Positions 23,030-51,270 of a stretch of 64,000 nt of DNA are shown here, piece by piece. The position numbers and the translations under genes were made by a program. Numbering within the stretch: the stretch's first letter is position 1; each line of letters starts with the position of its first letter. The notes under the pieces are model-generated. The model ran no database searches. It was not told the origin of the DNA and worked only from the letters and a program-made list of their open reading frames with translations. Location: IMG/VR virus record IMGVR_UViG_3300032294_002400; one strand, 5' to 3'. This stretch comes from an uncultured virus (IMG/VR IMGVR_UViG_3300032294_002400) (taxonomy: Duplodnaviria; Heunggongvirae; Uroviricota; Caudoviricetes).

Positions 23030-23880
23030 TCAACTTACCTGACGCGGTTAACGGCTACGTTAATCTTGTTCAACACGTACTCAAGTACGGTAAGGAGGCA
23101 GCTCCTCGCGGTATGAAGACGCGCGAGATTGAAGATGCAATTATTCGCATTAACGATGTCCGACATACTCTTCCTTTAGGTGTCGGTCGTGGAACTGTTC
23201 CTGGAATCGGTGCGGTTGAAGCTTGCCAGTTGCTTGCAGGCGCTGCAACTCCTAAGCTTGTTATGGCGGTCGGTCCTATGTTTAAGAACTACGCAGAAGA
23301 TAACGGAATGTTTCACGGAGCATACGGCGCGCGTACGCAAGATCAATATGGGCCAGTTATCGAGCGTCTTAAGAAAGACCCAGACTCACGGCAAGCGGTT
23401 GTAACTATCTGGGATCCAGTTTTAGATCTATTGCCAGATAAGCGCGATTACCCTTGTACAGTTTTGCATCAGTTTAGAATTCGTGACAACAAGCTTAACA
23501 TGAGCGTCTACATGCGCTCGAATGACGTATGGCTTGGAGCAGCATATGACTTCTTCCAGTTTACTCGTGTGCAAATTGCTATGGCATCTGTTCTAGGAGT
23601 TGCTCCCGGATCTTATGCTCATCACGTCGGATCTCTTCACATCTACGAGCAGCACTACGACGCGGCAGAGAATCTAAAGTATACAACCGAGCCGTATGAG
23701 AATATTCCTGCTATTACAGGATTTAACTGGCGTCAAGTGCAGGATCGAGCGCTATCATCTTTAACCGCTGCAATACATATCGATGAGCCTATGCTTGTCA
23801 ACAGCCTTCACCCGTTTGAAGGTTGGTATGCCCGCGCAATGATTACAGCAATCAAAAAGAACGAGGCTAAGAATGTCTGA
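23014..23880 (+). CDS. Thymidylate synthase homologue, probably dCMP-modifying (hydroxymethylase-like)
   Basis: DPDSRQAV, PC catalytic motif, MRSND, SLHIY. Asp (GAAYDFF) occupies the position of the dUMP-specifying Asn of ThyA. Confidence 0.8.
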   Translation: MDTAIINLPDAVNGYVNLVQHVLKYGKEAAPRGMKTREIEDAIIRINDVRHTLPLGVGRGTVPGIGAVEACQLLAGAATPKLVMAVGPMFKNYAEDNGMFHGAYGARTQDQYGPVIERLKKDPDSRQAVVTIWDPVLDLLPDKRDYPCTVLHQFRIRDNKLNMSVYMRSNDVWLGAAYDFFQFTRVQIAMASVLGVAPGSYAHHVGSLHIYEQHYDAAENLKYTTEPYENIPAITGFNWRQVQDRALSSLTAAIHIDEPMLVNSLHPFEGWYARAMITAIKKNEAKNV

Positions 23881-24049
23881 TCTTGAAAAAGAGTTTAGCA
23901 ACAGCCCTCTACGCGAGTCAATGCTGCAACTTCATGAAATGTATCTAGAGTTACGTGCGTCTGGCTTTAGCAAGAAACAGTCTTTATATTTAGTCTCTAA
24001 GGTCTTAACAACTGCGGTGTCAGGAAGCATGGACGATTTGAATGATTAG
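23873..24049 (+). CDS. 58-aa hypothetical protein (absent from the ORF track)
   Basis: ATG 23873 to TAG 24049 gives MSDLEKEFSNSPLRESMLQLHEMYLELRASGFSKKQSLYLVSKVLTTAVSGSMDDLND. It overlaps both neighbours and fills the gap. Confidence 0.65.
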   Translation: MSDLEKEFSNSPLRESMLQLHEMYLELRASGFSKKQSLYLVSKVLTTAVSGSMDDLND

Positions 24050-24521
24050 TAGACCCTCATGGGACGAAGTATGGATGCAGGTTGCAGATGCAATCTCGCG
24101 TAGATCTCGCTGTAGCCGCGCACAAATTGGCGCTGTCGTTGTGTCTAAGGACCAACGTATTAGCTCCACGGGTTACAACGGACCTGCGTCTTTATTTCCT
24201 ACCGAGGACGAGTGTATGGCATGGTGTCCACGCGCTCAGGGTTTAACTGTATTAGATAACACGTATGACTCTTGCCCGTCAATTCACGCAGAAGCAAATG
24301 CACTGTTGTATGTTGACCGTTCTCGCGTAGAAGGTGGTACTATCTACATTACAGACGCGGCTTGCTACCAATGTGCAAAGTTAATTTCTAACTCTGGCAT
24401 TACCCGCGTAGTTATGCGAATTGGTACACGTGCAGCTCATCGGTTACCAGACGCTACTGTTGAATATTTTAAGAAATGTAACATTGATGTAGTAATAACA
24501 GAGGACGTAGATGACAACTAA
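24042..24521 (+). CDS. dCMP deaminase
   Basis: RPSWD, RS.C.R..GAV, GYNG, HAE.NA and C..C zinc motifs. Confidence 0.9.
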   Translation: MISRPSWDEVWMQVADAISRRSRCSRAQIGAVVVSKDQRISSTGYNGPASLFPTEDECMAWCPRAQGLTVLDNTYDSCPSIHAEANALLYVDRSRVEGGTIYITDAACYQCAKLISNSGITRVVMRIGTRAAHRLPDATVEYFKKCNIDVVITEDVDDN

Positions 24522-31052: not shown

Positions 31053-32264
31053 ATGAAGGTATTGATGAGTGGTTTTACCGCGTTGCAAATCAACACGGAA
31101 AAACGTACAATACAAAAGATTGACGTGCCTGCGTCTATCGCAAAGGCATTACGTGAGGCTGGACATGAAGTTGACTGGCGTAAAATTACTCCAGGCGAGG
31201 ATCTTTCTGGCTATGACGTTTTATGGATCAATCTTGCTCCACTCAACTCATTAAATGGTCGTCAAGGTGCGATGGGTGCACTTTACGCTCTATCGTCAGG
31301 CATTCCTTGCGTAGGATTCTTTGATGATTGGCAGTTTAATACCGTATTCAATGGCGCTCGTGCTTTGATTCGCAAACCTGCGATGTTGTATAAGCATCTA
31401 CTTGTAGGGACTGAACATCGCGGTGAAGAAGGCGCAACTTATTTTAGTCGTGCAGATATTGAGGCAGCGCTTGAGCGTGTCAGAGAATTGAACCCAGCGG
31501 CTGCAAAGAAGTGTTATATCGAACGTTACTACATGATGGACACAGATGAAAACGTTCAGCCGTATGAAAAGCGTCTTGTTGAAGCAGCGCGTGATCTTTT
31601 AGCAGATCGTTGGACAGCAGGCATGGTTCCAGTTTGCCCTATGTACTCATTTGGTGATAGAGCCATTGTGCGTAAGCGCATGCCTGATGAAGTAGGACCT
31701 ATTGAAGCTCTTGATCCGACATCAACTGTTGTACCAACTCTTCAACCAGTAACCGCGCTCCCGTCAGAGCACAAGAAAAAAGCTTGGGTGCTTGGAGCTC
31801 TCATGCCACACGACACTTGGCTGGAAAAGAAAAATCCAGACTGGCCAGTCGAGATTGTTGGCAGTCGTAAGCTTATTAAGAAGCTTGGCGGACAGAGATT
31901 TGATACAGAGCAGGACGTTTTAGAATTCTACAATAAGCATTGGGGAATTCTTTCTCCACCGTACCCACATGCGGGGTCAGGCTGGTGGCGTAGTCGTTTT
32001 CTATATGCAGCGCACGTTGGTTCTATCCTTGTTACCGATAAAGGTGAAGGTGATCCACTAGGTGATGCGTATAAGTTAAAGATCTCCGACGTCGAGAAGA
32101 TGACAGACGCAGAGTTGCATGAAGCGGCTATGGCTCAACGTGCAGCTCTTGCTCCGTACTTGCCAGAGTATTCAGCGTTTGTAGATCATTGCGACCGTAT
32201 CATTAAGCGTGCGGTTGCGGAGGACAAAGGTCTTGCACGAAAGGCAGATGGTACTCTTGTATGA
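31053..32264 (+). CDS. GT-B-like glycosyltransferase, candidate DNA-base glycosyltransferase
   Basis: MKVLMSG, AL..AGHEV, DLS.YD, FFDDWQ and PPY...GWWR.R motifs; located in the DNA metabolism block. Confidence 0.6.
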   Translation: MKVLMSGFTALQINTEKRTIQKIDVPASIAKALREAGHEVDWRKITPGEDLSGYDVLWINLAPLNSLNGRQGAMGALYALSSGIPCVGFFDDWQFNTVFNGARALIRKPAMLYKHLLVGTEHRGEEGATYFSRADIEAALERVRELNPAAAKKCYIERYYMMDTDENVQPYEKRLVEAARDLLADRWTAGMVPVCPMYSFGDRAIVRKRMPDEVGPIEALDPTSTVVPTLQPVTALPSEHKKKAWVLGALMPHDTWLEKKNPDWPVEIVGSRKLIKKLGGQRFDTEQDVLEFYNKHWGILSPPYPHAGSGWWRSRFLYAAHVGSILVTDKGEGDPLGDAYKLKISDVEKMTDAELHEAAMAQRAALAPYLPEYSAFVDHCDRIIKRAVAEDKGLARKADGTLV

Positions 32265-33304
32265 GTAAAATTCTTATCACCGGAATGAGTGCGTCTCATT
32301 CATCTGAGAAAGCCAACTCGCGCTCGCTATCTTTTGCTGGCGTGATTAAGCTTGTGCTTGAACAGCAAGGGCATGAGGTTACACAGGCAAACCCTGAGGT
32401 CTCCTGGAACTTAAAAGATCTTGAACAATATGACTCCGTGCTTGTTGGAATCAGCCCGTTGACAAGTCTTAGCGCAAATCACGTCTATGGTGCGTTAAGT
32501 GTTATTGACGTGCTGCTTGATTCGCCTAAGCTCCATCTACTCATTGACGCACCAGAGCCTGCAAAGATTACAGCAAGCCTACGCGCAATGGTTAAGACTC
32601 CTGACAACCTCACCAAGCCTTTTTATTCATATCGCAAAGGGTTTAGCTCGGCTACTCAGCCAAACATGCTTGAAAACCTTCTAGAGGTTATAGATCATCT
32701 TGTCAACAAGAAATGGCCAACTACACTGTATCCAGCGTTGCCGTGGACAGATACTACAAAGCACATCGCTAATTATCTGCCAGACGGCGCGACAGATTCA
32801 CTTGTTGGAATCAACCTAGACGCTTATTTAATTTCTACGCAAGACATCATTGAAACCGAACGTCGTGAAAAGTGGGTTGTAGAAAATTACTCAACAAAGT
32901 GGATTAAGTCTACTACTGCAACTTTAGCCTTGCCTACCGTTCCTATGAAGTGGAATAAGGCTTGGACAGACGCGCAGGTATCCGCGCAGATAGCCTCTGG
33001 CTTTGGTGCGCTTATTCCTCCTTATTCTTCTAGCACGTGGTGGAGTTATAGATACATTCAATGCATGAATGGCTTAACTCCTATCGCGACAGACTGGAAG
33101 GAAAGCCAACTTGTTGGCTTATCATGGACACATCTTGCGTCAAGTATTGAAAGTATGACGCAGGAGCAACGTATTCAGCTTGCCAAGGATCAACGTAGCT
33201 CATATATTGAACATATACCTACACGTAGAGACGCGGCAGTCAGTTTATCACAGGCGCTAGATCTATTCACGAGAAAAGAGCAAACTAATGTCCACCTTGT
33301 TTGA
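32261..33304 (+). CDS. Paralogous GT-B-like glycosyltransferase
   Basis: KILITG, L...GHEV, DL..YD and PPY...WW.YRY align by eye with the previous ORF; ATGA coupling. Confidence 0.55.
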   Translation: MSKILITGMSASHSSEKANSRSLSFAGVIKLVLEQQGHEVTQANPEVSWNLKDLEQYDSVLVGISPLTSLSANHVYGALSVIDVLLDSPKLHLLIDAPEPAKITASLRAMVKTPDNLTKPFYSYRKGFSSATQPNMLENLLEVIDHLVNKKWPTTLYPALPWTDTTKHIANYLPDGATDSLVGINLDAYLISTQDIIETERREKWVVENYSTKWIKSTTATLALPTVPMKWNKAWTDAQVSAQIASGFGALIPPYSSSTWWSYRYIQCMNGLTPIATDWKESQLVGLSWTHLASSIESMTQEQRIQLAKDQRSSYIEHIPTRRDAAVSLSQALDLFTRKEQTNVHLV

Positions 33305-33773
33305 TAGTTGGTTAAAGCGTACACGTGACCTACAAAAAGACGTGTACTTTATTAACTATGAAGAAATGGAAGGCGACAAGGACGCAAACATCCGTCGTCT
33401 TATCGAGTACATGCGCTGGAACATGCTAGCCATTGACGACGAGCTTGCGGAGATGCGTCAGGCGATTTCATGGAAGCCTTGGCAGCATGACAAGCCTTAC
33501 GCAGACCGCGAAGAAATCATTAAAGAGGCAGTTGACGTTTTGCACTTTGTTGCAAATATCATCGTTGCGGCTGGCGGAACAGACGCACAGCTAAACAAGT
33601 ATTATCTTGAAAAGATGCAGCGTAACAAGCAGCGTCAGTTAGACGGATACAAGATTAAAGACATTGGAGTAAAGTGTGCTCTGTGTCAGCGCGCAATTGA
33701 CGACGTAGGGCGTGGTGCAACGCCTGATATGTGCGCTAAATGTTTACCTAAGGAGGATGGACACGATGCCTGA
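33288..33773 (+). CDS. All-alpha nucleotide pyrophosphohydrolase (dimeric dUTPase / dCTPase-like)
   Basis: E..E......WKPW, E..D..HF, Y..K...N..RQ..GY; C-terminal CxxC..CxxC. Confidence 0.8.
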   Translation: MSTLFDSWLKRTRDLQKDVYFINYEEMEGDKDANIRRLIEYMRWNMLAIDDELAEMRQAISWKPWQHDKPYADREEIIKEAVDVLHFVANIIVAAGGTDAQLNKYYLEKMQRNKQRQLDGYKIKDIGVKCALCQRAIDDVGRGATPDMCAKCLPKEDGHDA

Positions 33774-34708: not shown

Positions 34709-34773
34709 ATAGCACGCGGTAAGCAATATCTCAGTATAAGGTCCTACCATACGAACTACGGAGGGTCTTACTA

Positions 34774-36039
34774 GTGTCTCAACATACCTTTATCGACTGC
34801 AACGGGCTTGCGGCGTTCATGAGTCTTGGCTTCGTGCAAAACGATATGAAGATGATTCAACGCACTGGAACGCTAAACTTTGGAAACGTTGTTGCAGAAA
34901 ATAATCGTCATCTTCTTGGAGATGACTGGACAGCTGAGTTTTCAGACGATCCTAATGAATGGCGTGTACAAAAGGCAGACATAGTTATGGGTTGCCCTCC
35001 TTGCTCCGGTTGGTCGGTATGGTCTGGCCCTGCTAATCGTGGACCTGACTCTAAGGCGCACGAACACACCGTAGCCTTTATGAAATACGCAGGACGTGTA
35101 AAACCACGCGCTATTGTTTTTGAGTGTGTACAGCAGGCGTACACGCAAGGGCGCGATGTAATGGTTAAATACCGTGACATGGTTGAACAGATCTCAGGAA
35201 AGAAATACGATCTGTATCACGTTAAAGAAAATAATTTACAGGTTGGCGGATTTTCGTATCGTCCGCGCTACTTCTGGGTAGCGGTAGAATCTGGCCTTAA
35301 GTTTTCAGCTCCTATCATCGAGCCAAAAGAACTTCCACGCATCATGGACATCATCGGCGATCTTGCAGAGATGCCTCAGACATGGAACAAGCAAAAGTAT
35401 ACAGCGCCTGCGCCTTCTAAGTGGGTTAAGCACCTGCGCTCAAAAGATGGGCTTATTGACGGCCACATCGGCAAATCAAATATTCACGCACAACGTATTG
35501 AAGAAATCTTTAGCATTATCGGCAATGACGGCTGGGAAGGAAACGGTGACACAGGCGGTGCGCTTAAAAAAGCCGTAGACTTAAATGACGGCAAGTTTCC
35601 ACAAAAGTGGATTGATATTTCTCCTCGTGTTATTCGCAAGAATTTTAAGCTTGGATTTTCACAGCCATATCGTTGGAAGGAAGATCACTGGTGCAACGTG
35701 CTAACTGGCTCGGCGTTAGATCACGTTGTTCACCCAACACAGCCACGACTGATTACCCACCGTGAGTCTGCTCGTATGCAAGGTCTTCCTGATGATTGGA
35801 ATATTGAAGCCTCACGTGACTACTCACACCTTGCGGCTGTATGGGGCAAGGCTGTACCTGTGCAGGCAGCTAATTGGCTTGGTAGCGCGATTAAGGCGTC
35901 ACTAGACGGCAACCCACAAGGACCAGACGCAGAGTTAATTGGAGATCGCGAATATCTTATTGACGCTGACAAAGGATTCTCTCGACACTACGCTAAGAAA
36001 AAGTGGTACAGTAGCCCTATGGAGACAGCTAGCGAATGA
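34774..36039 (+). CDS. DNA (cytosine-5)-methyltransferase-fold enzyme with atypical cofactor motifs
   Basis: Motif IV GCPPCSGWS, VI FECV, VIII R.R.F, IX R.IT.RE.AR.QG.PD, X GKAVP. Motif I is DCNGLAA instead of FxGxG. Confidence 0.85.
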   Translation: MSQHTFIDCNGLAAFMSLGFVQNDMKMIQRTGTLNFGNVVAENNRHLLGDDWTAEFSDDPNEWRVQKADIVMGCPPCSGWSVWSGPANRGPDSKAHEHTVAFMKYAGRVKPRAIVFECVQQAYTQGRDVMVKYRDMVEQISGKKYDLYHVKENNLQVGGFSYRPRYFWVAVESGLKFSAPIIEPKELPRIMDIIGDLAEMPQTWNKQKYTAPAPSKWVKHLRSKDGLIDGHIGKSNIHAQRIEEIFSIIGNDGWEGNGDTGGALKKAVDLNDGKFPQKWIDISPRVIRKNFKLGFSQPYRWKEDHWCNVLTGSALDHVVHPTQPRLITHRESARMQGLPDDWNIEASRDYSHLAAVWGKAVPVQAANWLGSAIKASLDGNPQGPDAELIGDREYLIDADKGFSRHYAKKKWYSSPMETASE

Positions 36040-36335
36040 AACATATCCGCACGTACGATGACAATCTCGTGCCGATTTGCGAACGATGCTGGATAGACGA
36101 AAATAGTCTATGGGAAGCTGACAGCGTAGACATCAACGGTAATATCATTACCCGTCTTATCAGCGTCACCGTACCTATCGAGTTGTCCCCAGGCGCGGTG
36201 TCAGATTGCTACGTATGCGGAAGATTAACCGTCGTAGGTATCTACATCTCATCCATTGAGCTAGACGGGGAAGATCCAATTGATGATTTAGAGGAAGAGC
36301 CTATTCACGAGGAGCCTAAGCCCGACGAGCTATAA
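36036..36335 (+). CDS. Hypothetical zinc-ribbon-like protein
   Basis: CERC and CYVC; acidic tail. Confidence 0.55.
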   Translation: MKHIRTYDDNLVPICERCWIDENSLWEADSVDINGNIITRLISVTVPIELSPGAVSDCYVCGRLTVVGIYISSIELDGEDPIDDLEEEPIHEEPKPDEL

Positions 36336-36374: not shown

Positions 36375-36902
36375 ATGCAAACATTTCTACCTCAGACTAG
36401 TTCCTTCGAGCAAATTGCTCAAGAGCTAGATAACAAACGCCTTAATAAGCAAGTACTTGAGGCCTGGCAGCTTATGCTAGTTCTTACTTCGCTAAATCCA
36501 CAAGGTGAACACCGTGACCCTAAAGGCTGGCGCAATCACCCTGCGGCGAAGATGTGGGAAGGACACGAAAAAGCCTTAGCCTTATACGCAACTGTAATGT
36601 GCGACGAGTGGCTTAAGCGTGGCTACAAATCTACGATGATTCCTAAGATCAACGCTACGTTTTCTCGCGCCCTAGAACTTGGCCGCGCCGAGGACAAGCT
36701 AACCTTCCCGTGGTGGATGGAAGACAAGAACAAGTATGAAGAGCTAGCGTCTACTCACCGTGTTGCATTATTGCGCAAAGAGTACGAGTGGTACTCCAAG
36801 TTCGGCTGGCCAGAGGATAATGGCTACCGCCCAGCCCATTACCAATACCTATGGCCTGACAATAACGGTAGCCTTTACTTGGGCACCTTTAACGCCGCTT
36901 AA
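36375..36902 (+). CDS. Pyrimidine-dimer DNA glycosylase / endonuclease V-like (MSMEG_6728-like)
   Basis: MQTFLP, LD.KRL.KQ..E..Q, W.NHPA..MW, SH...LLRK and Y.WP motifs; own TATAAT at 36343. Confidence 0.8.
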   Translation: MQTFLPQTSSFEQIAQELDNKRLNKQVLEAWQLMLVLTSLNPQGEHRDPKGWRNHPAAKMWEGHEKALALYATVMCDEWLKRGYKSTMIPKINATFSRALELGRAEDKLTFPWWMEDKNKYEELASTHRVALLRKEYEWYSKFGWPEDNGYRPAHYQYLWPDNNGSLYLGTFNAA

Positions 36903-37388: not shown

Positions 37389-37894
37389 GCGGATCACTAG
37401 ATCTTAGTTGGCAAAAAGATTCAGCATGTGGACAGCAGGTAAATGAAGATTTTAGAGATTTCTTCTTTTCGTCCGAGCCTGCAGAAAAATATCAAGCAAA
37501 GAACCTTTGCTTCTCTTGCCCTGTAAGAAAAGAATGCCTAAAGTGGGCGCTTGAACATAAACAGATCTGGGGAATCTGGGGAGGAAAGGACGAAGGAGAG
37601 ATTCGTCGCACGCTTTCTGTATCCTGGAACGGACAGGAATCACGTCGTCAACGTTTCCCGCAATGCCCTTATTGCAACGCGCGACCAAATAAACTTAAGA
37701 CATTGGTTGTAGATACTCCAGGCGGAGGACGTTGGGCGACTATGCGTCTTGTTAAGTGCGAAGCTTGCGACTTTACCTGGCGCTCACGAACAAGCGCTAA
37801 CGCGGTAGATGCGTATCATACACAGCGGGAAGAGAAACTTGCAAAGGCTAAGACTAAGAAGATAAAGAAGAAAAAGAAAAAAGAAACGACTTAG
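37385..37894 (+). CDS. whiB: WhiB-family transcription factor with C-terminal zinc ribbon and basic tail
   Basis: W...AC, AK..C..CPV...C...AL and GIWGG; extra CPYC..CEAC; Lys-rich end. Confidence 0.88.
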   Translation: MSGSLDLSWQKDSACGQQVNEDFRDFFFSSEPAEKYQAKNLCFSCPVRKECLKWALEHKQIWGIWGGKDEGEIRRTLSVSWNGQESRRQRFPQCPYCNARPNKLKTLVVDTPGGGRWATMRLVKCEACDFTWRSRTSANAVDAYHTQREEKLAKAKTKKIKKKKKKETT

Positions 37895-38754
37895 ATCTCT
37901 CGTTCTCTGTAAAGTTTTGTTTGTGTTGCTGGATCTTTAAGATGCTCCATCCACCAGCGACAGGCTTTTTCATTTTCTGTCAATGTTAAGACTCCCCAGA
38001 TGCGACGATTATCTAGGTATTGAGGAATTCCTGCCTTACGTGCAGACTCCGAAAAGATCATATACTCCCAGCGATCTGACTCCTCCATGTAACTCAACTT
38101 GTCGATGTACTCGCGCTTAATCAAATATGTGCAGTGAACGCACATGCAGTCAATTAGACCTTTAATGTCCTGGTCAAGAATCTTATAGTACATGTCGTTA
38201 GCAATAATAGAGCCGTAGTCGTCTACAACATGATGGTAATTTGAGTAGTACTGTCCGCGATGTCCCTTGATCTTTTCCGCTTCCTCAGGAGTATCCTCAA
38301 CGTCTCCAAACGCAACCGCGTACCGCAGCATTGGCGAGACGATAGGAAGCTGAAGTGCAACAAGTTCCTTTAAAGTATCTGGGTAGATAAAGTTGTCAAT
38401 GTCTACTACAAAGTAATAGTCCGCATCGGAAAGAAGAGATTGACGTAGGCTTTCCTGGCGAATACGCGCAAGGACTCTAAAGCGTTCGCCGTTCCATGTA
38501 TGGACACCATATTGCTCGATGTTTTCCGGAACATTTTTAGTCTCGAAAGAGATGCTACGATATTTAGGACCGTGGATACCGATCCAATCTGCAAGGATTG
38601 CCTCGGTGTTATCAGTGTTGTTGTTCGTACGAACGTATAGATGGATCTTGTCCTTAGGGTAGTCCCATGCCTCAAGATTCTCCAGGAAAAAATTAAGTAC
38701 ACCTTCCTTTTGCTTTGCCAGTAAAGCTACAAAGACTACGGGTGCATCTGTCAT
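37891..38754 (-). CDS. Glycosyltransferase resembling the N-terminal GT-A domain of procollagen galactosyltransferase (COLGALT/GLT25D)
   Basis: VALLAK..L..L....YPK..I.L...T.NN.DNT..IL..W, W...R.....RQ..L, DY.F.VD.DN, P..L..L......V.PML, YSNY and VH.TYLI. Confidence 0.75.
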   Translation of the reverse strand: MTDAPVVFVALLAKQKEGVLNFFLENLEAWDYPKDKIHLYVRTNNNTDNTEAILADWIGIHGPKYRSISFETKNVPENIEQYGVHTWNGERFRVLARIRQESLRQSLLSDADYYFVVDIDNFIYPDTLKELVALQLPIVSPMLRYAVAFGDVEDTPEEAEKIKGHRGQYYSNYHHVVDDYGSIIANDMYYKILDQDIKGLIDCMCVHCTYLIKREYIDKLSYMEESDRWEYMIFSESARKAGIPQYLDNRRIWGVLTLTENEKACRWWMEHLKDPATQTKLYREREI

Positions 38755-39809
38755 ACTTGGTTCTCTATGCCCATCTCGTAAAATCTCATGTTGTTGCGTA
38801 GGCGTAGATCCGCAGGGTTTCCATCAATTGCAAGCTGGCCATATTTAACAGCCTTTGCCTTATCGCCAAGGTTGTGCGCTGATAGAGCTTGCATGTCATA
38901 TAGACGCCACTTCCATAGCTCTTCGCTAGATAGATAATGAGATGTTTTTTCACAGCGCGCCGCAATCTTGCACGTTTCCCAAACTCCGCCCCAGTCTTGC
39001 TGCTCGTAGTAGCAACGAACTTTTTCAAAGTAGTTTTCACCGCAAGGGTCAATTTCAATCGCGCGGTCTGCCCACATCATTGCATTTTCAGGCTGTCCTA
39101 AAGCTCGACACGCCTCGCTTGCCCAACGGCAGACAGCAGCTCTTTCAACAAACCAGTCCTTACTAAAGCTGTGAACTTTCTCAGCGCTTGATAGCACTAG
39201 ATCCCACATCTTGTAGAACATATACTCGCGAGTTAAATACACCCAGATGCGGTGATCTTCTCCAAACTCCTTTGATGCTGCAACAAGCATAGGTAGGTAT
39301 TGTCCACGTGATTTTGTGTTGTCTGGCTTGTGAGACATCTTAGTTCCGGTGATAGTTACGCTTTTAATTCCTGTATCAAGCGATGGAACAAACACCTCGT
39401 GAATTGGGTACTTCCAATACATGCCGTGCCGTGCGTGAAGGCGTGCGCCTAGCCAGGTGTGTCCTGTATCAAAATCACACCAACCTTTGTTAGCTCCAGG
39501 AATCCACTGCTTGCGAACCTCGTCAAAAAAGTTTTCATCTACAAGCTCATCCATATCTAAAGACAGGCAGACGTCTATATCGTCTGGCAATAAACTTTGT
39601 GCAGTGTTACGCGCAACGTCAAAGCGCCAGGGCTTTACTCTAATTTCGTGAACTATGACTCCATGCTCACGTAAGATCTCGACCGTACGGTCTGTGGATC
39701 CAGTGTCACAGACTAGGCGGAAGTCCGCATCCTTGGTAGTTTCTGCCCAGCGGGCAGCATGTTTTTCTTCATTTAGCGAGATGGCGTATGCGGCAACTTT
39801 CATGGTCAT
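38751..39809 (-). CDS. GT2 glycosyltransferase with C-terminal TPR repeats
   Basis: YAI..NE, DTGSTD.T, WRFD.ARN, LD.DE and HE motifs; helical TPR-like C-terminus. Confidence 0.85.
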   Translation of the reverse strand: MTMKVAAYAISLNEEKHAARWAETTKDADFRLVCDTGSTDRTVEILREHGVIVHEIRVKPWRFDVARNTAQSLLPDDIDVCLSLDMDELVDENFFDEVRKQWIPGANKGWCDFDTGHTWLGARLHARHGMYWKYPIHEVFVPSLDTGIKSVTITGTKMSHKPDNTKSRGQYLPMLVAASKEFGEDHRIWVYLTREYMFYKMWDLVLSSAEKVHSFSKDWFVERAAVCRWASEACRALGQPENAMMWADRAIEIDPCGENYFEKVRCYYEQQDWGGVWETCKIAARCEKTSHYLSSEELWKWRLYDMQALSAHNLGDKAKAVKYGQLAIDGNPADLRLRNNMRFYEMGIENQV

Positions 39810-39962
39810 ACCTTATCAAGATTAACACTATAAAATACACTTATACTGCTAAAATATATCTATATAATAATACTCAAGATCGAGTCAAACTGCCAGCTAA
39901 TCAGGTAAAGTTGGATAGCATAATACAATAATATTTATAATAAAAACCTGTAGCGCGTCAGG

Positions 39963-40871
39963 CTATAGGTTAAAAAATTGAAGCATTTCTTCTTGGCTAA
40001 ACCTATCCTTATTATTTTCACTGTTTATAGAAAAATTATGGATTTCAGACGTGTCACGCAGGATATATCTGTCATGTTGCTCTTCGACAGTGCCTATGTC
40101 ATTTCTGCATAGCAAATCTTCATGCATTTTTTCTGTTTTCCTCATGCCGATGTACTCTATTTCATCATCAGTGGCTATCAAAGTTGCAATGTCGTATACT
40201 AAAGCACTTTTCATTTTGGGCAAAAAAAGTTCTCCTCCAGAAGAATTAAGTAGAGAAGATATGCAAAACTTTGCAGCGTCTTTTTCAGAAATAAAAAATC
40301 TTGTCATTTTTTTGTCAGTTATAAATATTTTTTCTTGGGCAGTAATTGCTGTTTTCCACTTTTTAAAAATTGATCCGTTACTTCCAATTACGTTTCCGTA
40401 CCTTAACGCAGAAAACCTTGTGTCTGAAAAAGAATTTGCCAAAATAACATTTTTTTCTGCAAGCAGTTTAGTTGTGCCATATAAACTTGTTGGGGCACAA
40501 GCTTTATCACTAGACGTTAAAATCATTCCAGCCACGCCGTTCTGAATGCACGCGTTAACAACGTTATTTGTACCTACAACGTTAATATTTGTAGTTTCAT
40601 ATGGAATTTCTGCGGCTATATCTATATGCTTATTTGCCGCTGTGTGTATAACATAATCAATGCCTCTTGTAGCTAAAAAAATTGAATTAAAATCTTTTAT
40701 GTCTCCTACAACAAATTTTATTTTTTTATTTTTAAAAAGATCTTTCATTGCCATTTGTTCTTTTATGTTTCTTGAATATACTACTATTTCAGACACTGAA
40801 TTGTCAAGCAATAGTTCTTTACAGATAGAGTGTCCCACAGATCCTGTGCCGCCGGTTACTAAAAATTTCAT
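39963..40871 (-). CDS. UDP-N-acetylhexosamine 4,6-dehydratase (PseB/CapD-like SDR)
   Basis: TGGTGS.G, H.AA.KH, S(S)DKA..P..YG.TK, RYGNV.GS.GS and MTRF motifs. Confidence 0.88.
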   Translation of the reverse strand: MKFLVTGGTGSVGHSICKELLLDNSVSEIVVYSRNIKEQMAMKDLFKNKKIKFVVGDIKDFNSIFLATRGIDYVIHTAANKHIDIAAEIPYETTNINVVGTNNVVNACIQNGVAGMILTSSDKACAPTSLYGTTKLLAEKNVILANSFSDTRFSALRYGNVIGSNGSIFKKWKTAITAQEKIFITDKKMTRFFISEKDAAKFCISSLLNSSGGELFLPKMKSALVYDIATLIATDDEIEYIGMRKTEKMHEDLLCRNDIGTVEEQHDRYILRDTSEIHNFSINSENNKDRFSQEEMLQFFNL

Positions 40872-40884
40872 TTGCTAATTCACC

Positions 40885-41601
40885 TTACTCATCAAACTGT
40901 CCAAGTTTTTCTATATTTTTATAGTACTTTGACTCAGAATCAACGTATAAAGTAGTTAATACTGTTGTTGCTATAGGCAAGTATCCTTTGCCTTCTAAAG
41001 CTTTTCTTATTGGAGAGTCAGAAAAAATAGAGTTACTTATGTCTTCAATCATGATAAAAGGTATTTTTACGCTACTAGAGTAGGTACTTATTACGTCTAA
41101 ATCTTTTCCTTCAATGTCAATACTCATAAAGAAAGGTATTTCTTTAAAATAAGAAATGTGCATATTGACTATTTCATCTATAGTTTTTGCTTGAACTGTC
41201 TTTACAACAGCAATGTCTGTTCGCTGAGATTTTACCTTTCTTTCAGCGTATTCTAATGATGTTGTGTTAGACGAGTCGTAGTCTGCAAAAACATAAAATT
41301 CTTTTTCACCAGACTCTACTTCTACTGCGTAATTAAGAAGTAAATCATTTGGTCTTGTCTCTTTGATTACTTGGTTGTAGTGTGGGTTGGGGTCAACTAA
41401 AGTCCCTGTCCATCCCCGCCTGTGCAAGAAAAATGTATTAGAGTACATTACTGGATGAAACGCGCCTACGTCTAAATAAGTTTTTTTATCAAATAGATTA
41501 GTATTCATTACCCACGAAAGATGCTGCATTACTCCGTTTAACAGCGCATCTTCTCCGTAAGAACCATAAGAATCAAATGGCTTATACTCCGTTTGATCCA
41601 T
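40885..41601 (-). CDS. FkbM-family methyltransferase
   Basis: S.GED, YLDVGA.HP...SNT, GW.G..VDPN and SID.EG.D motifs. Confidence 0.8.
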   Translation of the reverse strand: MDQTEYKPFDSYGSYGEDALLNGVMQHLSWVMNTNLFDKKTYLDVGAFHPVMYSNTFFLHRRGWTGTLVDPNPHYNQVIKETRPNDLLLNYAVEVESGEKEFYVFADYDSSNTTSLEYAERKVKSQRTDIAVVKTVQAKTIDEIVNMHISYFKEIPFFMSIDIEGKDLDVISTYSSSVKIPFIMIEDISNSIFSDSPIRKALEGKGYLPIATTVLTTLYVDSESKYYKNIEKLGQFDE

Positions 41602-41603
41602 TT

Positions 41604-42407
41604 TTACTCACTTCTTGGTTCATTTTTAACAAATAAAACATTCCATTGTTTTCCAGAACAAATGTCTGAAAATTCAACTCGGGTCATTGTGTCAATGTCA
41701 TAGCAAAGTCTTCCAAAAGCTACTTCATTAAAAAAACTTTTTGAAGTATATGGACCCATTTCCATTATAATATACGGAGTATTTTTTATATTGTCGGTTG
41801 CACCACTCCAAAAGTCTTCTTCTCCTCCTTCTATATCAACCTTTATTAAGTCTGGTTGCTCATCTTCTAATGCTAAACTATCGACCCTTTTTATTTCGCA
41901 TTCTATAGTTTCCCATTCGATATCTAAAAAAGAATTTGCAAAGTCTTTAAATGATTCTTTAAACGTTGATCCGCCAAGATTGTCTTTATTTACCATAAAC
42001 TTTGTATTCTTAGTTTCGCTACCTAAGCCGAAAGAATGTACATGTATGGGCGCAGCGTTTTCATAAGTATTTAGTTTTTGAGCAGCAATATACTTGTTTA
42101 CTAAGTCTATCTGTGGTTCAAACGCACGTACTAATCCTTTTGGCCCGGAAAGCCTTGACGAAAGCTCAGTAACTTCAAACATATTAGCTCCAACGTCATA
42201 CACAACCCAACCTGGTTTTACATTTTTAATTAGCCATTCTGCTAAAAAAGGATCAAAAGTTCCAGATTGCTCTACGTATTTTTTATGAATATAGTCATTT
42301 TTGTAGCCAGCAAATAAGTAAAAATCCATATACTTTGATTTCACAAAATCATTATCACCTGTTTGATCTTGGTTCATTTGATTTTCATCCATTTCATTTT
42401 TATTCAT
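41604..42407 (-). CDS. FkbM-family methyltransferase
   Basis: DVGAN, V.AFEP, GLG and KVDIEG.E motifs. Confidence 0.8.
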   Translation of the reverse strand: MNKNEMDENQMNQDQTGDNDFVKSKYMDFYLFAGYKNDYIHKKYVEQSGTFDPFLAEWLIKNVKPGWVVYDVGANMFEVTELSSRLSGPKGLVRAFEPQIDLVNKYIAAQKLNTYENAAPIHVHSFGLGSETKNTKFMVNKDNLGGSTFKESFKDFANSFLDIEWETIECEIKRVDSLALEDEQPDLIKVDIEGGEEDFWSGATDNIKNTPYIIMEMGPYTSKSFFNEVAFGRLCYDIDTMTRVEFSDICSGKQWNVLFVKNEPRSE

Positions 42408-43134
42408 TAAACAGTCCTAAAACGTATTTATTGTAGAAAAACTCTATTGCTGACCCTGAAGGCAGATTATTTTTGTCTATTCCAGCCCTAGACGCCATTT
42501 CGTTATACACGCTAAAACTTTTTATATTTTTAGAAATTTCAATAACATTTTTAAAATGTTCTGGCGTCCACAGGTAGTACCAGTCTTGCCACTCTATTCC
42601 ATTGACCAAAGATTCATCGATTAAGTACCTTTTATAGTCTGGAAACATATCAAAGGCTTTATTAAGAATATTTGAATTGGTATCCGTCCACCCGAGAAGA
42701 GACCTGTCTACCATGTCCGATGACTTTATTATATGCTGAAGTATGTCTGATCCTTGGGGCAGTCTGAAGATTCCGTTTTGAACTTCTCCATTGTGTTGCA
42801 TGATGCAATAGTATTCGTCGTCAGGGAACCACTCGTCTGTCAAGCAAATAGTGTCTGCGTCTACCCAACCAAAATTAAATTTTTCAACCATTTTGTATCT
42901 AAATACGTCTGCAAAATTGGCCATGTTTCCAATTCCGTCGTACGCCATCACGTCATTAGCGTCTCTCAGAACGACTTGATCTGGAACTTTTCCAATATCT
43001 TCATACACAAAAAGGTTTACTTTATGGCCGTGTTTTACAAAAGAACTAAAACATATCTCTTGTATTTTTGTTATGTTTTTACCTACCCAGAGAGAACCTA
43101 GTTCTGCCACGACCCTACCTCTTTCTTTATACAC
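42400..43134 (-). CDS. DXD-motif glycosyltransferase (GT32 / alpha-1,4-GT-like)
   Basis: SLWVG, SF..HGH...LF.Y, DAN, FAD.FRY and W.DAD motifs. Confidence 0.75.
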   Translation of the reverse strand: MYKERGRVVAELGSLWVGKNITKIQEICFSSFVKHGHKVNLFVYEDIGKVPDQVVLRDANDVMAYDGIGNMANFADVFRYKMVEKFNFGWVDADTICLTDEWFPDDEYYCIMQHNGEVQNGIFRLPQGSDILQHIIKSSDMVDRSLLGWTDTNSNILNKAFDMFPDYKRYLIDESLVNGIEWQDWYYLWTPEHFKNVIEISKNIKSFSVYNEMASRAGIDKNNLPSGSAIEFFYNKYVLGLFNE

Positions 43135-43208
43135 CTATAGGATTGTGAATCCGGGCTAATACTGACATGCGTACTATAAAATAGTATCATATAGGGCACT
43201 GTTAATAG

Positions 43209-44693
43209 CTAGAATATATAATCTTTTCCGTATTTAGACGTAAAATATCGCACATTGTCGTTAGAAGAGGTTTTCCACTCTTCTCTAGAATGCTCTAGAG
43301 ACACTCCTATTCCGTCAATATAGTCAAAAAGTCTTCCATACTTATCTAAGTACCTTTTGTGATAATCTATGTCTTCTTGTCCCCAGCCGACGTAGTTTTC
43401 GTCAAAACCGCCTAGCTCGTTAAAGGTTTTTTTAGTTATAACGAGCAGACCAGAGCACACCCATAAGCGGTCGGTTTTTCCGTCTTTTAGCTTAGGGTTA
43501 GTATTTCTTCTGTTATGTAAGTTAATAGATTCTGGTCGCTCTTCTAAAAACTTTTTTGTTCCTTCGTACGACAACTCTACGTAGTCGTTGTAAGGAAGAC
43601 TGATATGCTCTGTTTTAATTGAATTTAATATCGCTTTTATTAAAGAATCTTTTGATGGAAAAAAATCAGCATCACTTGATAAAACTATGTCTGCGCCACC
43701 CTCGAACGCTTCTATTATCCCTTTATTCCTGCTAGACGAAAGATTAAAAATTTGATGATTACTATCAGATAAGATAATACTAAACGTAGGAAATTCTTTA
43801 CAATACCATTTTGTTAAATAAGTAAATATTTCAGCTCTTGATTCTGTTCTTCTCCACGGAATTACGACAGCTATTTTTTTATTAACTATTATATTATCTA
43901 AAAAAGATTTAGAAAAGTAGCTTTTATTACTGGTGCTGATTATGTCTTGATACTCAATAGTTGTAGACTTTGACCACCTTACTTCATAGTCATTTGCGCT
44001 TTTTACATTTTGCCTATGGTGCTCGTCTGACACTTGTATTGATGACTTTGATATATTAAATGAAAAAAGAGGACAAGAGATAGTAGTTGTCATACCGTAC
44101 ACGATCCACTCGGCGGTTGGCTGAGACAAAATATAGGCATTATTTCTATAATCTAGAATACTTAAACTGACAAAATTATCTAAAACAAATATATTATTTT
44201 TAATATATGTGTCTACTAGCTTTTTTCCATATTTTCTGCTTATTAAATACACTGTACAGTTAAAGTCCCATGGGGTTCTTTCATGCGCATTAAAGTTTAA
44301 ACTTACATCTTCTCTTGTAGAAATTGCCAGTTGAAAGCATTCAGTACCTTTAAAATTATTAAATAAATCTGTAATAGTAAAATTGATCTTTTTAAGGTTA
44401 TCGAGCTTTGCATCATCTTCACAAAACATTGCATACTCGTCGTCTGAGTTTTCTATAAAATATTTTATAGCAGTTAAATGTGATAAAGAAGTTGCAATTT
44501 CTACATTTCTACAGCCTTTGGTCCGCCCCTGGACTAAAGTAGATTCTGGAACATCAAACTCAGTTAGTGCTTCTATTCTTTCATATCTTTTTATGCCAAG
44601 TTCTGACATTTGTTGAATAAAAATATCATCTCTGTCTTTTCTTTCACTAAGATTGATATAATATATTTTGTAATTTTCTAAAAACTTTGTCAT
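43209..44693 (-). CDS. Two-domain glycosyltransferase: GT25-like N-terminus plus GT2/GT7-like C-terminus
   Basis: N-terminal YINL..R.DR, SH..A and EDD; C-terminal VIPWR, FN.S..RN.G, DAD and GGFDE.Y.GWG.ED. Confidence 0.8.
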   Translation of the reverse strand: MTKFLENYKIYYINLSERKDRDDIFIQQMSELGIKRYERIEALTEFDVPESTLVQGRTKGCRNVEIATSLSHLTAIKYFIENSDDEYAMFCEDDAKLDNLKKINFTITDLFNNFKGTECFQLAISTREDVSLNFNAHERTPWDFNCTVYLISRKYGKKLVDTYIKNNIFVLDNFVSLSILDYRNNAYILSQPTAEWIVYGMTTTISCPLFSFNISKSSIQVSDEHHRQNVKSANDYEVRWSKSTTIEYQDIISTSNKSYFSKSFLDNIIVNKKIAVVIPWRRTESRAEIFTYLTKWYCKEFPTFSIILSDSNHQIFNLSSSRNKGIIEAFEGGADIVLSSDADFFPSKDSLIKAILNSIKTEHISLPYNDYVELSYEGTKKFLEERPESINLHNRRNTNPKLKDGKTDRLWVCSGLLVITKKTFNELGGFDENYVGWGQEDIDYHKRYLDKYGRLFDYIDGIGVSLEHSREEWKTSSNDNVRYFTSKYGKDYIF

Positions 44694-44805
44694 AAGTTCT
44701 CTATGCTTTTAAGATTTAAAAGTCTAATTAACGACTTGATTTTTTTATACTTATATGCTAAAGAAAAATTGCTGCTGTCTACATAAATCATTACATATTT
44801 CATAA

Positions 44806-45393
44806 TTATAAAGCTCTTAAAAAATCTTTATTTGGAAATAAAGCGCTGCTTTTTATCCCTAAAAAATAGCATATCTTTTTTTCAATTTGGTCGTCGCTTA
44901 ATGATAAAGTTAAAAGTCTATCTGTTCCATAAAAAAAGTCCTTTACACTTTTTCTATGCTCATTGTAGTATTCAAGCTGTTCTTCTTTAGACAAAACTGG
45001 ATGTTTTTCAACATCTATACTTATATACTTGCCATAGTATATTTTTTCAAATTTTGTTAAGAACTCTCTTTTAAACTTGGTTTTTTCTTTATACGAGACG
45101 CACGACTCGTACCATGCAAGAGGATCTCTCTCTACTAATATGAACTTTGCGTTTGGATACTTTTTAGAAAAGTGATCATATAAAAAAGTATATGGTGTGT
45201 CGTTAAAAGCGTTAAAAGATTCTTCTAATGGAGATATTAAGTCAATTATATCTTTTTCATTGTTAAATTGATCTAAATCAAAATCTATAGTTTGACCTAT
45301 CCAATGGTGTGACTTATAGCCTATGCTAGTTAAAAAATCGTGCATTGACTGTGTGCCAGAGCGAGGGCTGCTGACATTAAAAACTTTATCCAT
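44806..45393 (-). CDS. Sulfotransferase (P-loop, PAPS-dependent)
   Basis: 5'-PSB-like PRSGT.S, D.P, YPNAKFIL..RD...W..S and FLG motifs. Confidence 0.75.
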   Translation of the reverse strand: MDKVFNVSSPRSGTQSMHDFLTSIGYKSHHWIGQTIDFDLDQFNNEKDIIDLISPLEESFNAFNDTPYTFLYDHFSKKYPNAKFILVERDPLAWYESCVSYKEKTKFKREFLTKFEKIYYGKYISIDVEKHPVLSKEEQLEYYNEHRKSVKDFFYGTDRLLTLSLSDDQIEKKICYFLGIKSSALFPNKDFLRAL

Positions 45394-45445
45394 TATAACG
45401 CTCCCATAGACGTACTATAACATGTTCCTACTAACAGTGAGGTAG

Positions 45446-46135
45446 CTAAAGATCGTTTGTATTTCTAATGTTATCTGGGTCAATTGTTGATTTGATATTT
45501 ATGTAGTCGTGCTTTAAAAAATAAAGATTATCTGGAACTATAGAGTACCCGTCGACAGTTCCTTCATGGCACTGACGAAATACAAAGCAGTCTGTAGTGT
45601 ACTGTATTCCTGTTCTTTTTAAAATTTTTAAAAGCGTTTTCGCTCCAGAAAAAGAATAAACCATCGCTTGTCCTGCAGAAAACTGAGTTAAGGCTCTATG
45701 TATATATCGAGAACCAATGTCTGTTTTTTTATCAAAACTATTTTGTTCTTTAAAATAGTACAAAGATAGAAAGTCAAAATCTTTAGGCAAGTCATTTAAG
45801 CACAACTGCAAATTTGATACAAAATCTTTTTCCAATACTACATCATCTTCTAGCATTAAAAACATGTCAACATTGTTATTAACTATATACTCCCACACGT
45901 TAATTGTGCTTACCCAAACTCCTAACTCTCCAGGCAATGGCGGAAGAGACCTTCCATCATACGGATTCCATACATCTTGTCTAATACCCTTATGATTTAT
46001 TACGTCCCAGGCATTTCCTTTGTTTCCATTAAAAAATTCTATACTGTTTACATGCTCGAAACCAGACAATATAGACTTGTTATAGTCCATATTTTCTTTT
46101 GATCTATCGTTTATGTGAACAATTGTATATTTCAT
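45446..46135 (-). CDS. GT25-family glycosyltransferase
   Basis: GE.G.W.S...W and LEDD motifs; LP.DFD. Confidence 0.75.
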   Translation of the reverse strand: MKYTIVHINDRSKENMDYNKSILSGFEHVNSIEFFNGNKGNAWDVINHKGIRQDVWNPYDGRSLPPLPGELGVWVSTINVWEYIVNNNVDMFLMLEDDVVLEKDFVSNLQLCLNDLPKDFDFLSLYYFKEQNSFDKKTDIGSRYIHRALTQFSAGQAMVYSFSGAKTLLKILKRTGIQYTTDCFVFRQCHEGTVDGYSIVPDNLYFLKHDYINIKSTIDPDNIRNTNDL

Positions 46136-47235
46136 TATAGGTATTTAGCAAAGTTTTCAAACTTTTCTCTTCCAATCCTTCCTATAAGACTGTCAATTGC
46201 GTCATTAGTTCTTTTTTGCCAATTATACTCTGAAGTGACTTGATCAATCTGATTATAAAATAGATCTGATTGATGGTCAAAGTCTTCAACGGCTTTTTTC
46301 ATTAAGTAAACCATTGAATCTATGTCTGGCAAAACAACATTACCGTGCCGTACGTATGTTTCAACTATTGGAGATACTCCCAATGTTGATTCGATAACGT
46401 TTCCATTTAAAAATTTTTCATACGAACACCAACGACTTGTCGATATTACTGGCATTCCAGTAGCCAGTGCTTGAAGAGGGATTAGTCCAAACCCTTCTCC
46501 TTCTGATGGATAAATAAGAATGTCATGAAACTTAAAAAGACTTACGAGTTGATCTAGTGTGATATTTTCTTTAATATGCCTTACGGTGGCTGACTCCCAC
46601 GTCCCTCTTTCGGCAAGAACAGATTCATCGTGCCAATCTGCGTCGGACTGCGAATAATGACTATGCTTTAATGTTATTTCATAGCCAAATTTTCCTCCGA
46701 ATGCCTTTTTAAAAGCTTCTACTGCTAATGGCGCACGTTTTCTTGGCGATCCAGAGTCTACGTGAAGAAATCTAATAACATCTTTTCTTTTTCTTTTACG
46801 AGGAGTCCACACTGAAGCGTCTACTCCATGTTCGAACACATGTATTTTTTCTGCAGGAACACCTGCGTCAATAAAGGCGTTTGCTCCGAACTGATTAGCA
46901 GTCCACCATTCGTCGTAGCGTTTTGCATGATCTACCCAGTTAGGTGGGATTAGTGTTGACTCCCATTGAGTCATTTGAATTTTATATTGATGGTCGTAAA
47001 AAAACCCTCCAGGAGATCCATAGTAAAGTTGCACTTGAGATTTAGGAGAATTTATGTCAATGCTTATTTGTTCGTCGTTATATTTATACTGCCTTAGGTG
47101 TTTTGCTATCTCTTGATACGTGTACGCGTACCCGAAATAAGACCCAGACGCTCTAACGTGCGGGTCGGCATATAAGGACATTCTAAACATTTTGCCTGCT
47201 CCTCTCCATTTATGCTCTGCCTTACAGATACGCAT
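46135..47235 (-). CDS. GT4-family (GT-B) glycosyltransferase
   Basis: WES..P..W, HGVD, RK and YPS.GEGFGL.PLQA.ATG.P.I motifs. The true start may be a few codons downstream. Confidence 0.85.
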   Translation of the reverse strand: MRICKAEHKWRGAGKMFRMSLYADPHVRASGSYFGYAYTYQEIAKHLRQYKYNDEQISIDINSPKSQVQLYYGSPGGFFYDHQYKIQMTQWESTLIPPNWVDHAKRYDEWWTANQFGANAFIDAGVPAEKIHVFEHGVDASVWTPRKRKRKDVIRFLHVDSGSPRKRAPLAVEAFKKAFGGKFGYEITLKHSHYSQSDADWHDESVLAERGTWESATVRHIKENITLDQLVSLFKFHDILIYPSEGEGFGLIPLQALATGMPVISTSRWCSYEKFLNGNVIESTLGVSPIVETYVRHGNVVLPDIDSMVYLMKKAVEDFDHQSDLFYNQIDQVTSEYNWQKRTNDAIDSLIGRIGREKFENFAKYL

Positions 47236-48187: not shown

Positions 48188-48250
48188 AGGTCTCTCTCAT
48201 CTGACGTGACTCTAGGGCATACTATACTACAAATCTCGGTTTTTATCTTA

Positions 48251-48291: not shown

Positions 48292-48303
48292 GTTAAGAAT
48301 GGG

Positions 48304-51270
<2,967 letters not shown>

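Follow-up and report, generated by a model that had tools for sequence, protein, structure and literature searches.

A viral cytosine-C5 methyltransferase-fold family with lysine at motif X occurs in phages with a predicted 5-hydroxymethylcytosine pathway and probably performs chemistry other than methylation

Which reaction is catalyzed by a cytosine-C5 methyltransferase-fold protein that has kept its catalytic residues while its cofactor site was rebuilt? This question is raised by a gene, here called MTL, on a 64,000-nucleotide stretch of DNA from an uncultured tailed virus (IMG/VR record IMGVR_UViG_3300032294_002400, Caudoviricetes), which as a whole is referred to as the window. MTL is the open reading frame (ORF) at 34774-36039 on the + strand and encodes 421 amino acids from a GTG start codon. 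The original prediction for this gene had pointed to a change from asparagine to lysine at motif X and proposed a natural C5 transferase that adds something other than a methyl group, possibly from carboxy-S-adenosylmethionine (carboxy-SAM). MTL is a variant of a known enzyme type, whereas its chemistry has to be predicted from sequence. Because the cofactor pocket is rebuilt, a lysine stands at the reaction site and the family is found only in phages with a predicted 5-hydroxymethylcytosine (5hmC) pathway, MTL probably performs chemistry other than methylation or carboxymethylation. Of the original proposal, the non-methyl reaction, independent of S-adenosylmethionine (SAM), stands as the best reading, while the use of carboxy-SAM is poorly supported.

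The GTG start codon of MTL is preceded at a distance of 8 nt by a Shine-Dalgarno-like GGAGGG (34760-34765, + strand), and it matches the start of homologues opening with MSQHTF, one of which is 98% identical and likewise 421 amino acids long. Pfam PF00145 matched the protein with an E-value of 2.6e-19 (70.3 bits, the cut-off being 22), but the match begins at profile position 57, leaving the SAM-binding N-terminus (the first 56 profile positions) unmatched. With the NCBIfam dcm model (TIGR00675) 33.8 bits were obtained, which is below the cut-off of 100.65. An AlphaFold2 (AF2) model built on the family alignment reached a predicted local distance difference test score (pLDDT) of 95.6 and a predicted template modelling score (pTM) of 0.93, and the top Foldseek matches of this model were DNMT1, MET1, ZMET2, 3g7u, M.HaeIII and M.HhaI (E 1e-14 to 1e-20 for DNMT1, MET1, M.HaeIII and M.HhaI; probability 1.0). 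As modelled, MTL is confidently a complete two-domain cytosine-C5 methyltransferase fold, with a large and conserved recognition domain that is most like that of DNMT1/MET1. The geometry of the pocket was read from alignments, and the residues of M.HhaI that contact SAM were taken partly from the paper on the phage enzyme CmoX discussed below.

The covalent machinery of the fold is present. All motifs quoted in the original prediction (PC, FECV, motifs VIII and IX, GKAVP and the AAG codon) were found in the ORF. Alignment placed motif IV at P75-P76-C77 (34996-35004), with Cys77 as the catalytic nucleophile; the surrounding stretch reads GCPPCSGWS (residues 73-81) and carries Ser78 where Gln is usual. 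Motif VI corresponds to E117-C118-V119 (35122-35130; FECV, residues 116-119), motif VIII to R163-P-R165 (35260-35268; SYRPRYFW, residues 161-168) and motif IX to RLITHRESARMQGLPDDW (residues 325-342, 35746-35799), which lines up with its counterpart in M.HaeIII, 3g7u and the DNMTs. MTL therefore resembles M.HaeIII, M.HhaI, 3G7U and DNMT1/MET1 in its fold, the Cys of PPC, the motif VI Glu, the R-x-R of motif VIII and motif IX, and it keeps the residues for cytosine flipping, for attack on C6 (Cys77), for protonation of N3 (Glu117) and for holding O2 (Arg163 and Arg165).

The cofactor site is different. A profile of 119 family members aligned to M.HaeIII from residue 1, with Gln or Asn of the family at the motif I Phe and Phe or Leu at the first Gly of LFSGAGG; in MTL itself these positions are occupied by Asn10 and Leu12. 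Motif I of MTL accordingly reads D8-C-N-G-L-A-A-F15 (34795-34818), with N-G-L-A-A-F at the positions aligned to the F-x-G-x-G-G that characterizes SAM-dependent enzymes. At the motif II position, R30-T-G-T33 (34861-34872), no acidic residue is found and Gly32 takes the Asp/Glu site. Motif X consists of G358-K359 (35845-35850) within GKAVP (residues 358-362), and Lys359, encoded by AAG at 35848-35850, falls on the GNAVP Asn of M.HaeIII, MET1/ZMET2 and DNMT1, whether the single sequence or the family profile is aligned. The remodelling described in the original prediction (DCNGLAAF in motif I, no acidic residue at motif II, GK at motif X) was thus borne out, and the lysine does map to the motif X Asn in alignments to M.HaeIII, the plant and mammalian DNMTs and 15 bacterial enzymes. 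Compared with ordinary C5-methyltransferases, MTL has Asn for the motif I Phe, Leu for the first Gly, Gly for the motif II acid, PCS for PCQ, ECV for ENV and GK for GN.

A search of 1.84 billion cluster representatives returned 862 relatives of MTL at E ≤1e-3 and 137 at E ≤1e-30. Conservation was counted over 124 sequences, comprising MTL and 123 representatives of at least 340 amino acids clustered at 50% identity, and was compared with 15 ordinary full-length bacterial C5-methyltransferases taken from genome contigs. Lys was found at motif X in 117/124 sequences and Arg in 3/124, whereas all 15 ordinary enzymes have GN; the lysine, which the original prediction had proposed to follow through the homologues, is hence conserved, and most rows without it also lack PPC or are truncated. 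The catalytic Cys is present in 119/124 and the motif VI Glu in 123/124, and in alignment A1 R165 is invariant and R163 nearly so; overall, 94-99% of diverse family members retain Cys77, Glu117, Arg163, Arg165 and Lys359. The residue after PPC is Ser in 105/124, compared with PPCQ in 14/15 and PSCQ in 1/15 ordinary enzymes, and the residue after the motif VI Glu is Ser in 117/124 and Cys in 5/124 (Cys in MTL), compared with ENV in 15/15. Likewise, the position of the first motif I Gly is occupied by a hydrophobic residue (Phe, Leu, Tyr or Met) in 116/124, while F-x-G-x-G-G was seen in 15/15 ordinary enzymes. As judged by these alignments, the motif changes of MTL are a trait of the family and not chance, and three polar residues beside C5 are altered together family-wide (PCQ to PCS, ENV to E-S/C-V and GN to GK).

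The motif II position behaves otherwise. Asp or Glu was found there in 15/15 ordinary enzymes, whereas MTL has Gly32 (in Q-R-T-G-T) and the acid is missing in 36/124 family rows, 5 of them without an aligned N-terminal segment. The family falls into two subfamilies. That of the window reads D-C-N-G-L-A-G/A-F and R-T-G-T and has no motif II acid, and none of the adenosine-holding residues (Phe, Gly residues, Glu and Asp-equivalent) survives in its members. The larger sister subfamily reads D-C-Q-G-F-A-G-G-F and G-K-[RC]-E, and keeps the Glu and the GG pair. Since the motif II acid is variable or lost while the lysine is constant, the adenosine site is not under uniform constraint, unlike the lysine. 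A C-terminal extension past motif X (residues 386-404 of MTL, 35929-35985; consensus GE-IGDRE-LID) is conserved in both subfamilies and forms a beta-hairpin in the model; ordinary C5-methyltransferases stop before it.

In these searches the family appeared to be confined to viruses. One genome each from 185,579 prokaryotic species contained no close relative of MTL; the A3 patterns yielded no relative in them, and the matches to the A2 patterns were ordinary methyltransferases, 15 full-length ones of which were inspected and all found to be canonical. A near-identity DNA search of phage records with the window gave no match. The window is part of a siphovirus-like actinophage that encodes WhiB, collagen-like fibres and a family A polymerase. 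Its closest named relative is the metagenome-assembled Actinomycetia phage DSL-LC01, whose MTL is 65.5% identical and which has the same gene order. Databases annotate MTL as a methylase, and no publication describing the family was found in the literature on the family itself, on actinophage 5hmC or on DNA modification in phage GMA2. In the accessible portion of the GMA2 genome paper orf51 is given as a putative methylase, and no nucleoside analysis is reported there (PMC4524720). The MetaGPA paper (PMC8670742) contains no mention of methyltransferase, PF00145 or MazG.

The second line of evidence comes from the genes that accompany MTL. The window encodes a ThyA homologue (23014-23880, + strand; PF00303) for which MilA, a CMP hydroxymethylase, is the best relative among solved structures. 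It carries Asp at the positions of E. coli L143 and N177 and has kept D169. According to the sections of PMC13326640 used here, N177D denotes the use of dCMP, L143D/E gives water access as in the T4-type 5-hydroxymethyl-dCMP (5hm-dCMP) synthases, and a 5-hydroxy-dCMP synthase would be recognized by D169N. Because both Asp residues are present and D169 is kept, the signature of the window protein is that of a 5hm-dCMP synthase. Exactly one PF00303 homologue was found in 39/39 large viral records carrying MTL (30 of the sister subfamily and 9 of the window subfamily), including 25/25 of those at least 90% complete, and a homologue was also present in 3/3 GenBank carrier phage records (isolates or assemblies), so that all 42/42 carriers have one. 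Asp/Asp/Asp at the L143, D169 and N177 positions was seen in all 36 ThyA homologues inspected, namely those of the window, the 3 phage records (Kurnik by eye) and 32/39 viral records. By contrast, PF00303 was found in 0/31 control viral records with ordinary Asn-type methylases, although these are mostly proviruses, smaller, and unmatched to the carriers in lifestyle. In the reverse direction MTL was present in 10/17 records with a closely related ThyA, many of these records being fragments. As far as this signature identifies the synthase, the MTL family occurs only in phages with a ThyA of the 5hm-dCMP-synthase type. If cytosine is replaced by 5hmC in these phages, as predicted, their DNA would offer no free C5 to a C5 transferase.

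A natural DNA carboxymethyltransferase has already been published, and MTL is unlike it, as CmoX has an Arg at motif X, a full adenosine pocket and a CmoA. In the parts of the report consulted (PMC12783734, Nat Commun, December 2025), Synechococcus phage S-B43 encodes CmoX, which uses carboxy-SAM to produce 5-carboxymethylcytosine; in the CmoX crystal structure 8YF3, Arg350 at the position of M.HhaI Asn304 contacts the carboxymethyl group, and the adenosine is held by Phe25, Glu47, Phe48 and Asp69. The CmoX phage has its own CmoA, and a survey in the same report lists 4257 CmoA genes alongside 5615 CmoX genes; it also cites an engineered motif X Asn-to-Lys variant of M.MpeI, in which a basic residue selects carboxy-SAM. 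Both MTL and CmoX are phage proteins of the C5-methyltransferase fold in which a basic residue replaces the motif X Asn beside the C5 group, with the same charge but a different residue (Lys359 in MTL, Arg350 in CmoX). Unlike MTL, however, CmoX combines its Arg with an intact adenosine pocket, is accompanied in its phage by CmoA and an amide ligase, and acts on ordinary C in GC sites. Placed via the M.HaeIII alignment, Phe25, Glu47 and Asp69 of CmoX correspond to Asn10, Gly32 and Thr53 of MTL. The SPPC of CmoX is C-P-P-C in MTL and N-P-P-C in most of the family, and in a single-sequence comparison CmoX (8YF3) was a marginal match to MTL (E 0.18). The engineered M.MpeI variant shares the identical Asn-to-Lys change at motif X, but enzymes of this type carry it as the sole alteration of their SAM pocket, whereas MTL has at least 4 further pocket changes. 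A gene of cyanophage S-TIM5 (L197:4839-6056) was also considered as a comparison and set aside as uninformative; it has Q-N at motif X and is not CmoX-like. This methylase-like gene is 21-22% identical, lies three genes from a ThyA gene, and has PPCAGLS, ENA and no F-x-G-x-G-G.

Whether MTL belongs to the 5hmC pathway or depends on it in another way was judged from its locus. The order common to both subfamilies is a gene for the single-stranded DNA-binding protein SSB, a variable cassette, MazG and MTL, which closes the DNA-modification block; in most lineages the cassette encodes proteins resembling GT-B glycosyltransferases together with sugar nucleotidyltransferases or epimerases. The constant neighbour of MTL is the gene of a MazG/dUTPase_2-type nucleotide pyrophosphohydrolase (33288-33773 in the window, + strand; PF08761, E 3e-11), and among loci of at least 15 kb a MazG homologue was found in 19/19 of subfamily A and in 35/43 of subfamily B. 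Seven records with a related ThyA lack MTL, and three of them were checked: L370 (G041, 90% complete), L371 (G043, with terminal repeats) and L372 (G052). All three have the whole block from the kinase-like gene to WhiB in order, with MTL cleanly gone between DUF6378 and the gene of a pyrimidine-dimer glycosylase, and they represent natural knock-outs useful for comparison. Its clean absence from three relatives with otherwise intact synteny marks MTL as an accessory gene; and since all 42 carriers have ThyA while natural absences of MTL occur, MTL needs the 5hmC pathway, whereas the pathway does without MTL. Directly downstream, the ATG of a 99-amino-acid protein with CxxC...CxxC motifs and an acidic tail (36036-36335, + strand) overlaps the MTL stop codon. 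This ORF is present in 19/19 subfamily-A loci and was retained in G043, which lost MTL; its product could be a partner or an inhibitor of MTL.

On these grounds we tentatively favour, at somewhat less than an even chance, the explanation that MTL is an accessory, post-replicative enzyme that reacts covalently with the 5hmC of phage DNA by a route independent of SAM. This takes up the second idea of the original prediction, the exchange of groups on 5hmC. MTL would use neither SAM nor carboxy-SAM. After replication it would bind 5hmC in phage DNA and add Cys77 to C6, and Lys359, at the site of CmoX Arg350, might hydrogen-bond to or protonate the oxygen of the 5-CH2OH group. The hydroxyl could then depart, with another small group taking its place at the exocyclic methylene, which would give a second, sequence-specific cytosine modification on top of the sugar or amino-acid decoration laid down by the neighbouring cassette. 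Chemistry on 5hmC is favoured because motif X contacts the C5 group in CmoX and because there is a precedent in an ordinary C5-methyltransferase: M.MpeI is described, in the portion of PMC11347137 drawn on here, to accept 5hmC DNA, to form covalent complexes with it and, as it appears, to remove the hydroxymethyl group. The more specific claim that MTL exchanges the 5hmC hydroxyl for another group without SAM, with Lys359 as leaving-group catalyst, and would be the first natural enzyme to employ the covalent mechanism of the cytosine methyltransferases independently of SAM, is a possibility we hold with more doubt.

Several observations weigh against this explanation. Product, substrate and cofactor are inferred for the whole family, the pocket from alignment, and the co-occurrence counts are not phylogenetically independent. 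MTL is present independently of which decoration cassette accompanies it and is cleanly gone from the three syntenic relatives, which argues that it is no required step of any decoration pathway; the natural deletions and the independence of the cassette would be just as well explained by an enzyme acting on unmodified cytosine. Should the 5hmC of the phage be fully glycosylated, little free 5hmC may be left as substrate, and the motif II Glu and GG pair of the sister subfamily are compatible with some adenosyl cofactor family-wide.

In the main rival MTL would act on unmodified cytosine, which is missing from the phage's own 5hmC DNA, and we regard this as rather unlikely but as a serious contender. 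MTL could be a weapon on host DNA, in which Cys77 adds to C6 and Lys359 protonates C5, so that the dihydrocytosine deaminates to uracil or stays cross-linked and the host chromosome is marked for breakdown; or it could patch leftover C in phage DNA, converting it to 5hmC or another C5 adduct via a non-SAM one-carbon donor. The one-way dependence on the 5hmC pathway is what self-immunity would lead one to expect, the constant pair of MazG and MTL, whatever the cassette, fits a module that keeps C out, and both a weapon and a patch would be dispensable, as MTL is. A plugged cofactor pocket agrees with this as well, given that SAM-starved C5-methyltransferases deaminate cytosine and exchange H5, and the translationally coupled CxxC protein with its acidic tail, which persists in G043, could fit an inhibitor. 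However, the changes from PCQ to PCS and from ENV to ESV shrink side chains, which would rather make room for a C5 substituent, Arg in place of Lys (3/124) suits the binding of an anion or hydroxyl better than proton donation, the large DNMT1-like recognition domain suggests sequence-specific action and not bulk damage, and a donor for the patching reaction is not evident.

That MTL is an ordinary SAM-dependent methyltransferase with a divergent pocket, making 5-methylcytosine at specific sites in residual or host cytosines, appears improbable. It passes PF00145 (70.3 bits against 22) with its catalytic motifs complete, the sister subfamily retains the motif II Glu and the motif I G-G, and methylase is the database label. 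Yet five positions that are uniform in 15/15 ordinary enzymes are altered family-wide, the residues holding adenosine (Phe, Gly residues, Glu and Asp-equivalent) are replaced in the window subfamily, the score is far under the NCBIfam dcm cut-off, and the exclusive tie to 5hmC phages would be left unexplained. An eroded pocket and a dispensable gene would also suit a catalytically idle DNA binder that reads or shields 5hmC or C sites or recruits factors, and cofactor-less methyltransferase-like regulators exist in other systems; the retention of Cys77, Glu117, Arg163, Arg165 and Lys359 in 94-99% of members is unexpected for a mere binder, and we give this idea little weight. Least of all do we expect the carboxy-SAM-dependent DNA cytosine carboxymethyltransferase of the original prediction, with Lys359 in the role of the engineered Lys or of CmoX Arg350. 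The lysine does align exactly to the motif X Asn, where, in the published excerpts cited above, a basic residue selects carboxy-SAM in CmoX. But three adenosine contacts of CmoX (Phe25, Glu47 and Asp69) are lost in MTL, CmoX is only a distant match that looks different, and the C5 positions of the phage are predicted to be occupied already. Furthermore, CmoA (TIGR00740) was found in 0/39 related viral records, among which 25 are at least 90% complete, and in 0/3 related phage records, and, as the original prediction had stated for the window, in 0/42 of its ORFs scanned with NCBIfam, the window being part of the phage genome; the genome of Corynebacterium glutamicum, an actinobacterial control, gave no TIGR00740 match either.

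The favoured chemistry on 5hmC presupposes a pathway that delivers this base, and the genes upstream of MTL are consistent with one. They comprise a kinase-like gene, ThyA, a dCMP deaminase, replication and recombination genes, two GT-B-like genes and the MazG-type gene. The nucleotide kinase-like gene (22013-23029, + strand) overlaps the start of ThyA and matched phrog_761 thymidylate kinase (E 8e-13), with a weak P-loop match to dTMP kinase, while the dCMP deaminase (24042-24521, + strand) was identified by PF00383 (E 4e-18) and phrog_174 (E 6.7e-46). The two genes for proteins resembling GT-B glycosyltransferases lie at 31053-32264 and 32261-33304 (+ strand), and Pfam gave no match for either product even at E 5. 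The 347-amino-acid protein was modelled with AF2 at a pLDDT of 90 and shows the GT-B fold, its best TM-scores being with T4 beta-glucosyltransferase (1j39, 0.60); the other is its distant paralogue, the two being 19-20% identical, and feature matches to a PF09198 cluster were obtained. For each component of the T4 kit for glucosyl-5hmC (gp42, gp1, gp56, Cd and the alpha- and beta-glucosyltransferases) a counterpart is thus seen in the window, namely the dCMP-type ThyA, the kinase, the MazG-type pyrophosphohydrolase, the dCMP deaminase and the two GT-B enzymes. From the ThyA signature, the GT-B pair and the upstream gene set, the phage is predicted to possess a kit like that of T4 for making 5hmC DNA decorated with sugars. 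To our knowledge T4 has no enzyme of the C5-methyltransferase fold, so MTL would be an addition to the T4 scheme.

The cassette takes another form in two records of the sister subfamily (L099:6558-9154 and L161:6581-9159), where homologues of the PF18724 amino-acid:DNA transferase and the PF18748 5-hmdU (5-hydroxymethyldeoxyuridine) DNA kinase are encoded together with an FkbM methyltransferase. L099 additionally has an inositol-1-phosphate synthase, and ThyA is of the dCMP type in both, so this cassette may be the cytosine counterpart of thymidine hypermodification.

Downstream of MTL and of the CxxC protein lies the gene of a pyrimidine-dimer DNA glycosylase homologue (36375-36902, + strand; PF03013, NCBIfam MSMEG_6728 family), which is found in 19/19 close loci. 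It is followed on the - strand by a sugar-modification cluster (37891-47235) with GT2-, GT25- and GT4-type glycosyltransferases, two FkbM methyltransferases, a PseB-like UDP-GlcNAc 4,6-dehydratase and a sulfotransferase. The cluster adjoins the collagen-like tail fibre genes (47321-55060), with an adenosine 5'-phosphosulfate (APS)-kinase-like gene further on (63256-63951, - strand), and it may decorate virion proteins rather than DNA. The product of the gene at 60060-60767 (+ strand) contains the nuclease domain found at the C-terminus of GmrSD-type restriction enzymes (PF07510, E 3e-10); GmrSD enzymes normally attack glucosyl-5hmC DNA.

The C5-methyltransferase fold is among the best-studied DNA-modifying scaffolds, and both its SAM-free side reactions on 5hmC and engineered carboxymethylation are laboratory tools. 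A large natural family that has rebuilt the cofactor site, kept the covalent machinery and is found only in 5hmC phages points to an uncatalogued reaction on DNA cytosine, and might yield a new enzyme with which 5hmC can be specifically labelled or sequenced. As MTL is carried by the cultured Gordonia phages GMA2, Sixama, GodonK and Phendrix and by Micrococcus phage Kurnik, the question is directly testable. The reaction might yield a new base, or it might give the phage a new means of discriminating its own DNA from that of the host, either of which bears on phage counter-defence. If the proposed hydroxyl exchange is true, it would constitute an undescribed cytosine hypermodification, spread across a large set of actinobacterial, marine and soil phages.

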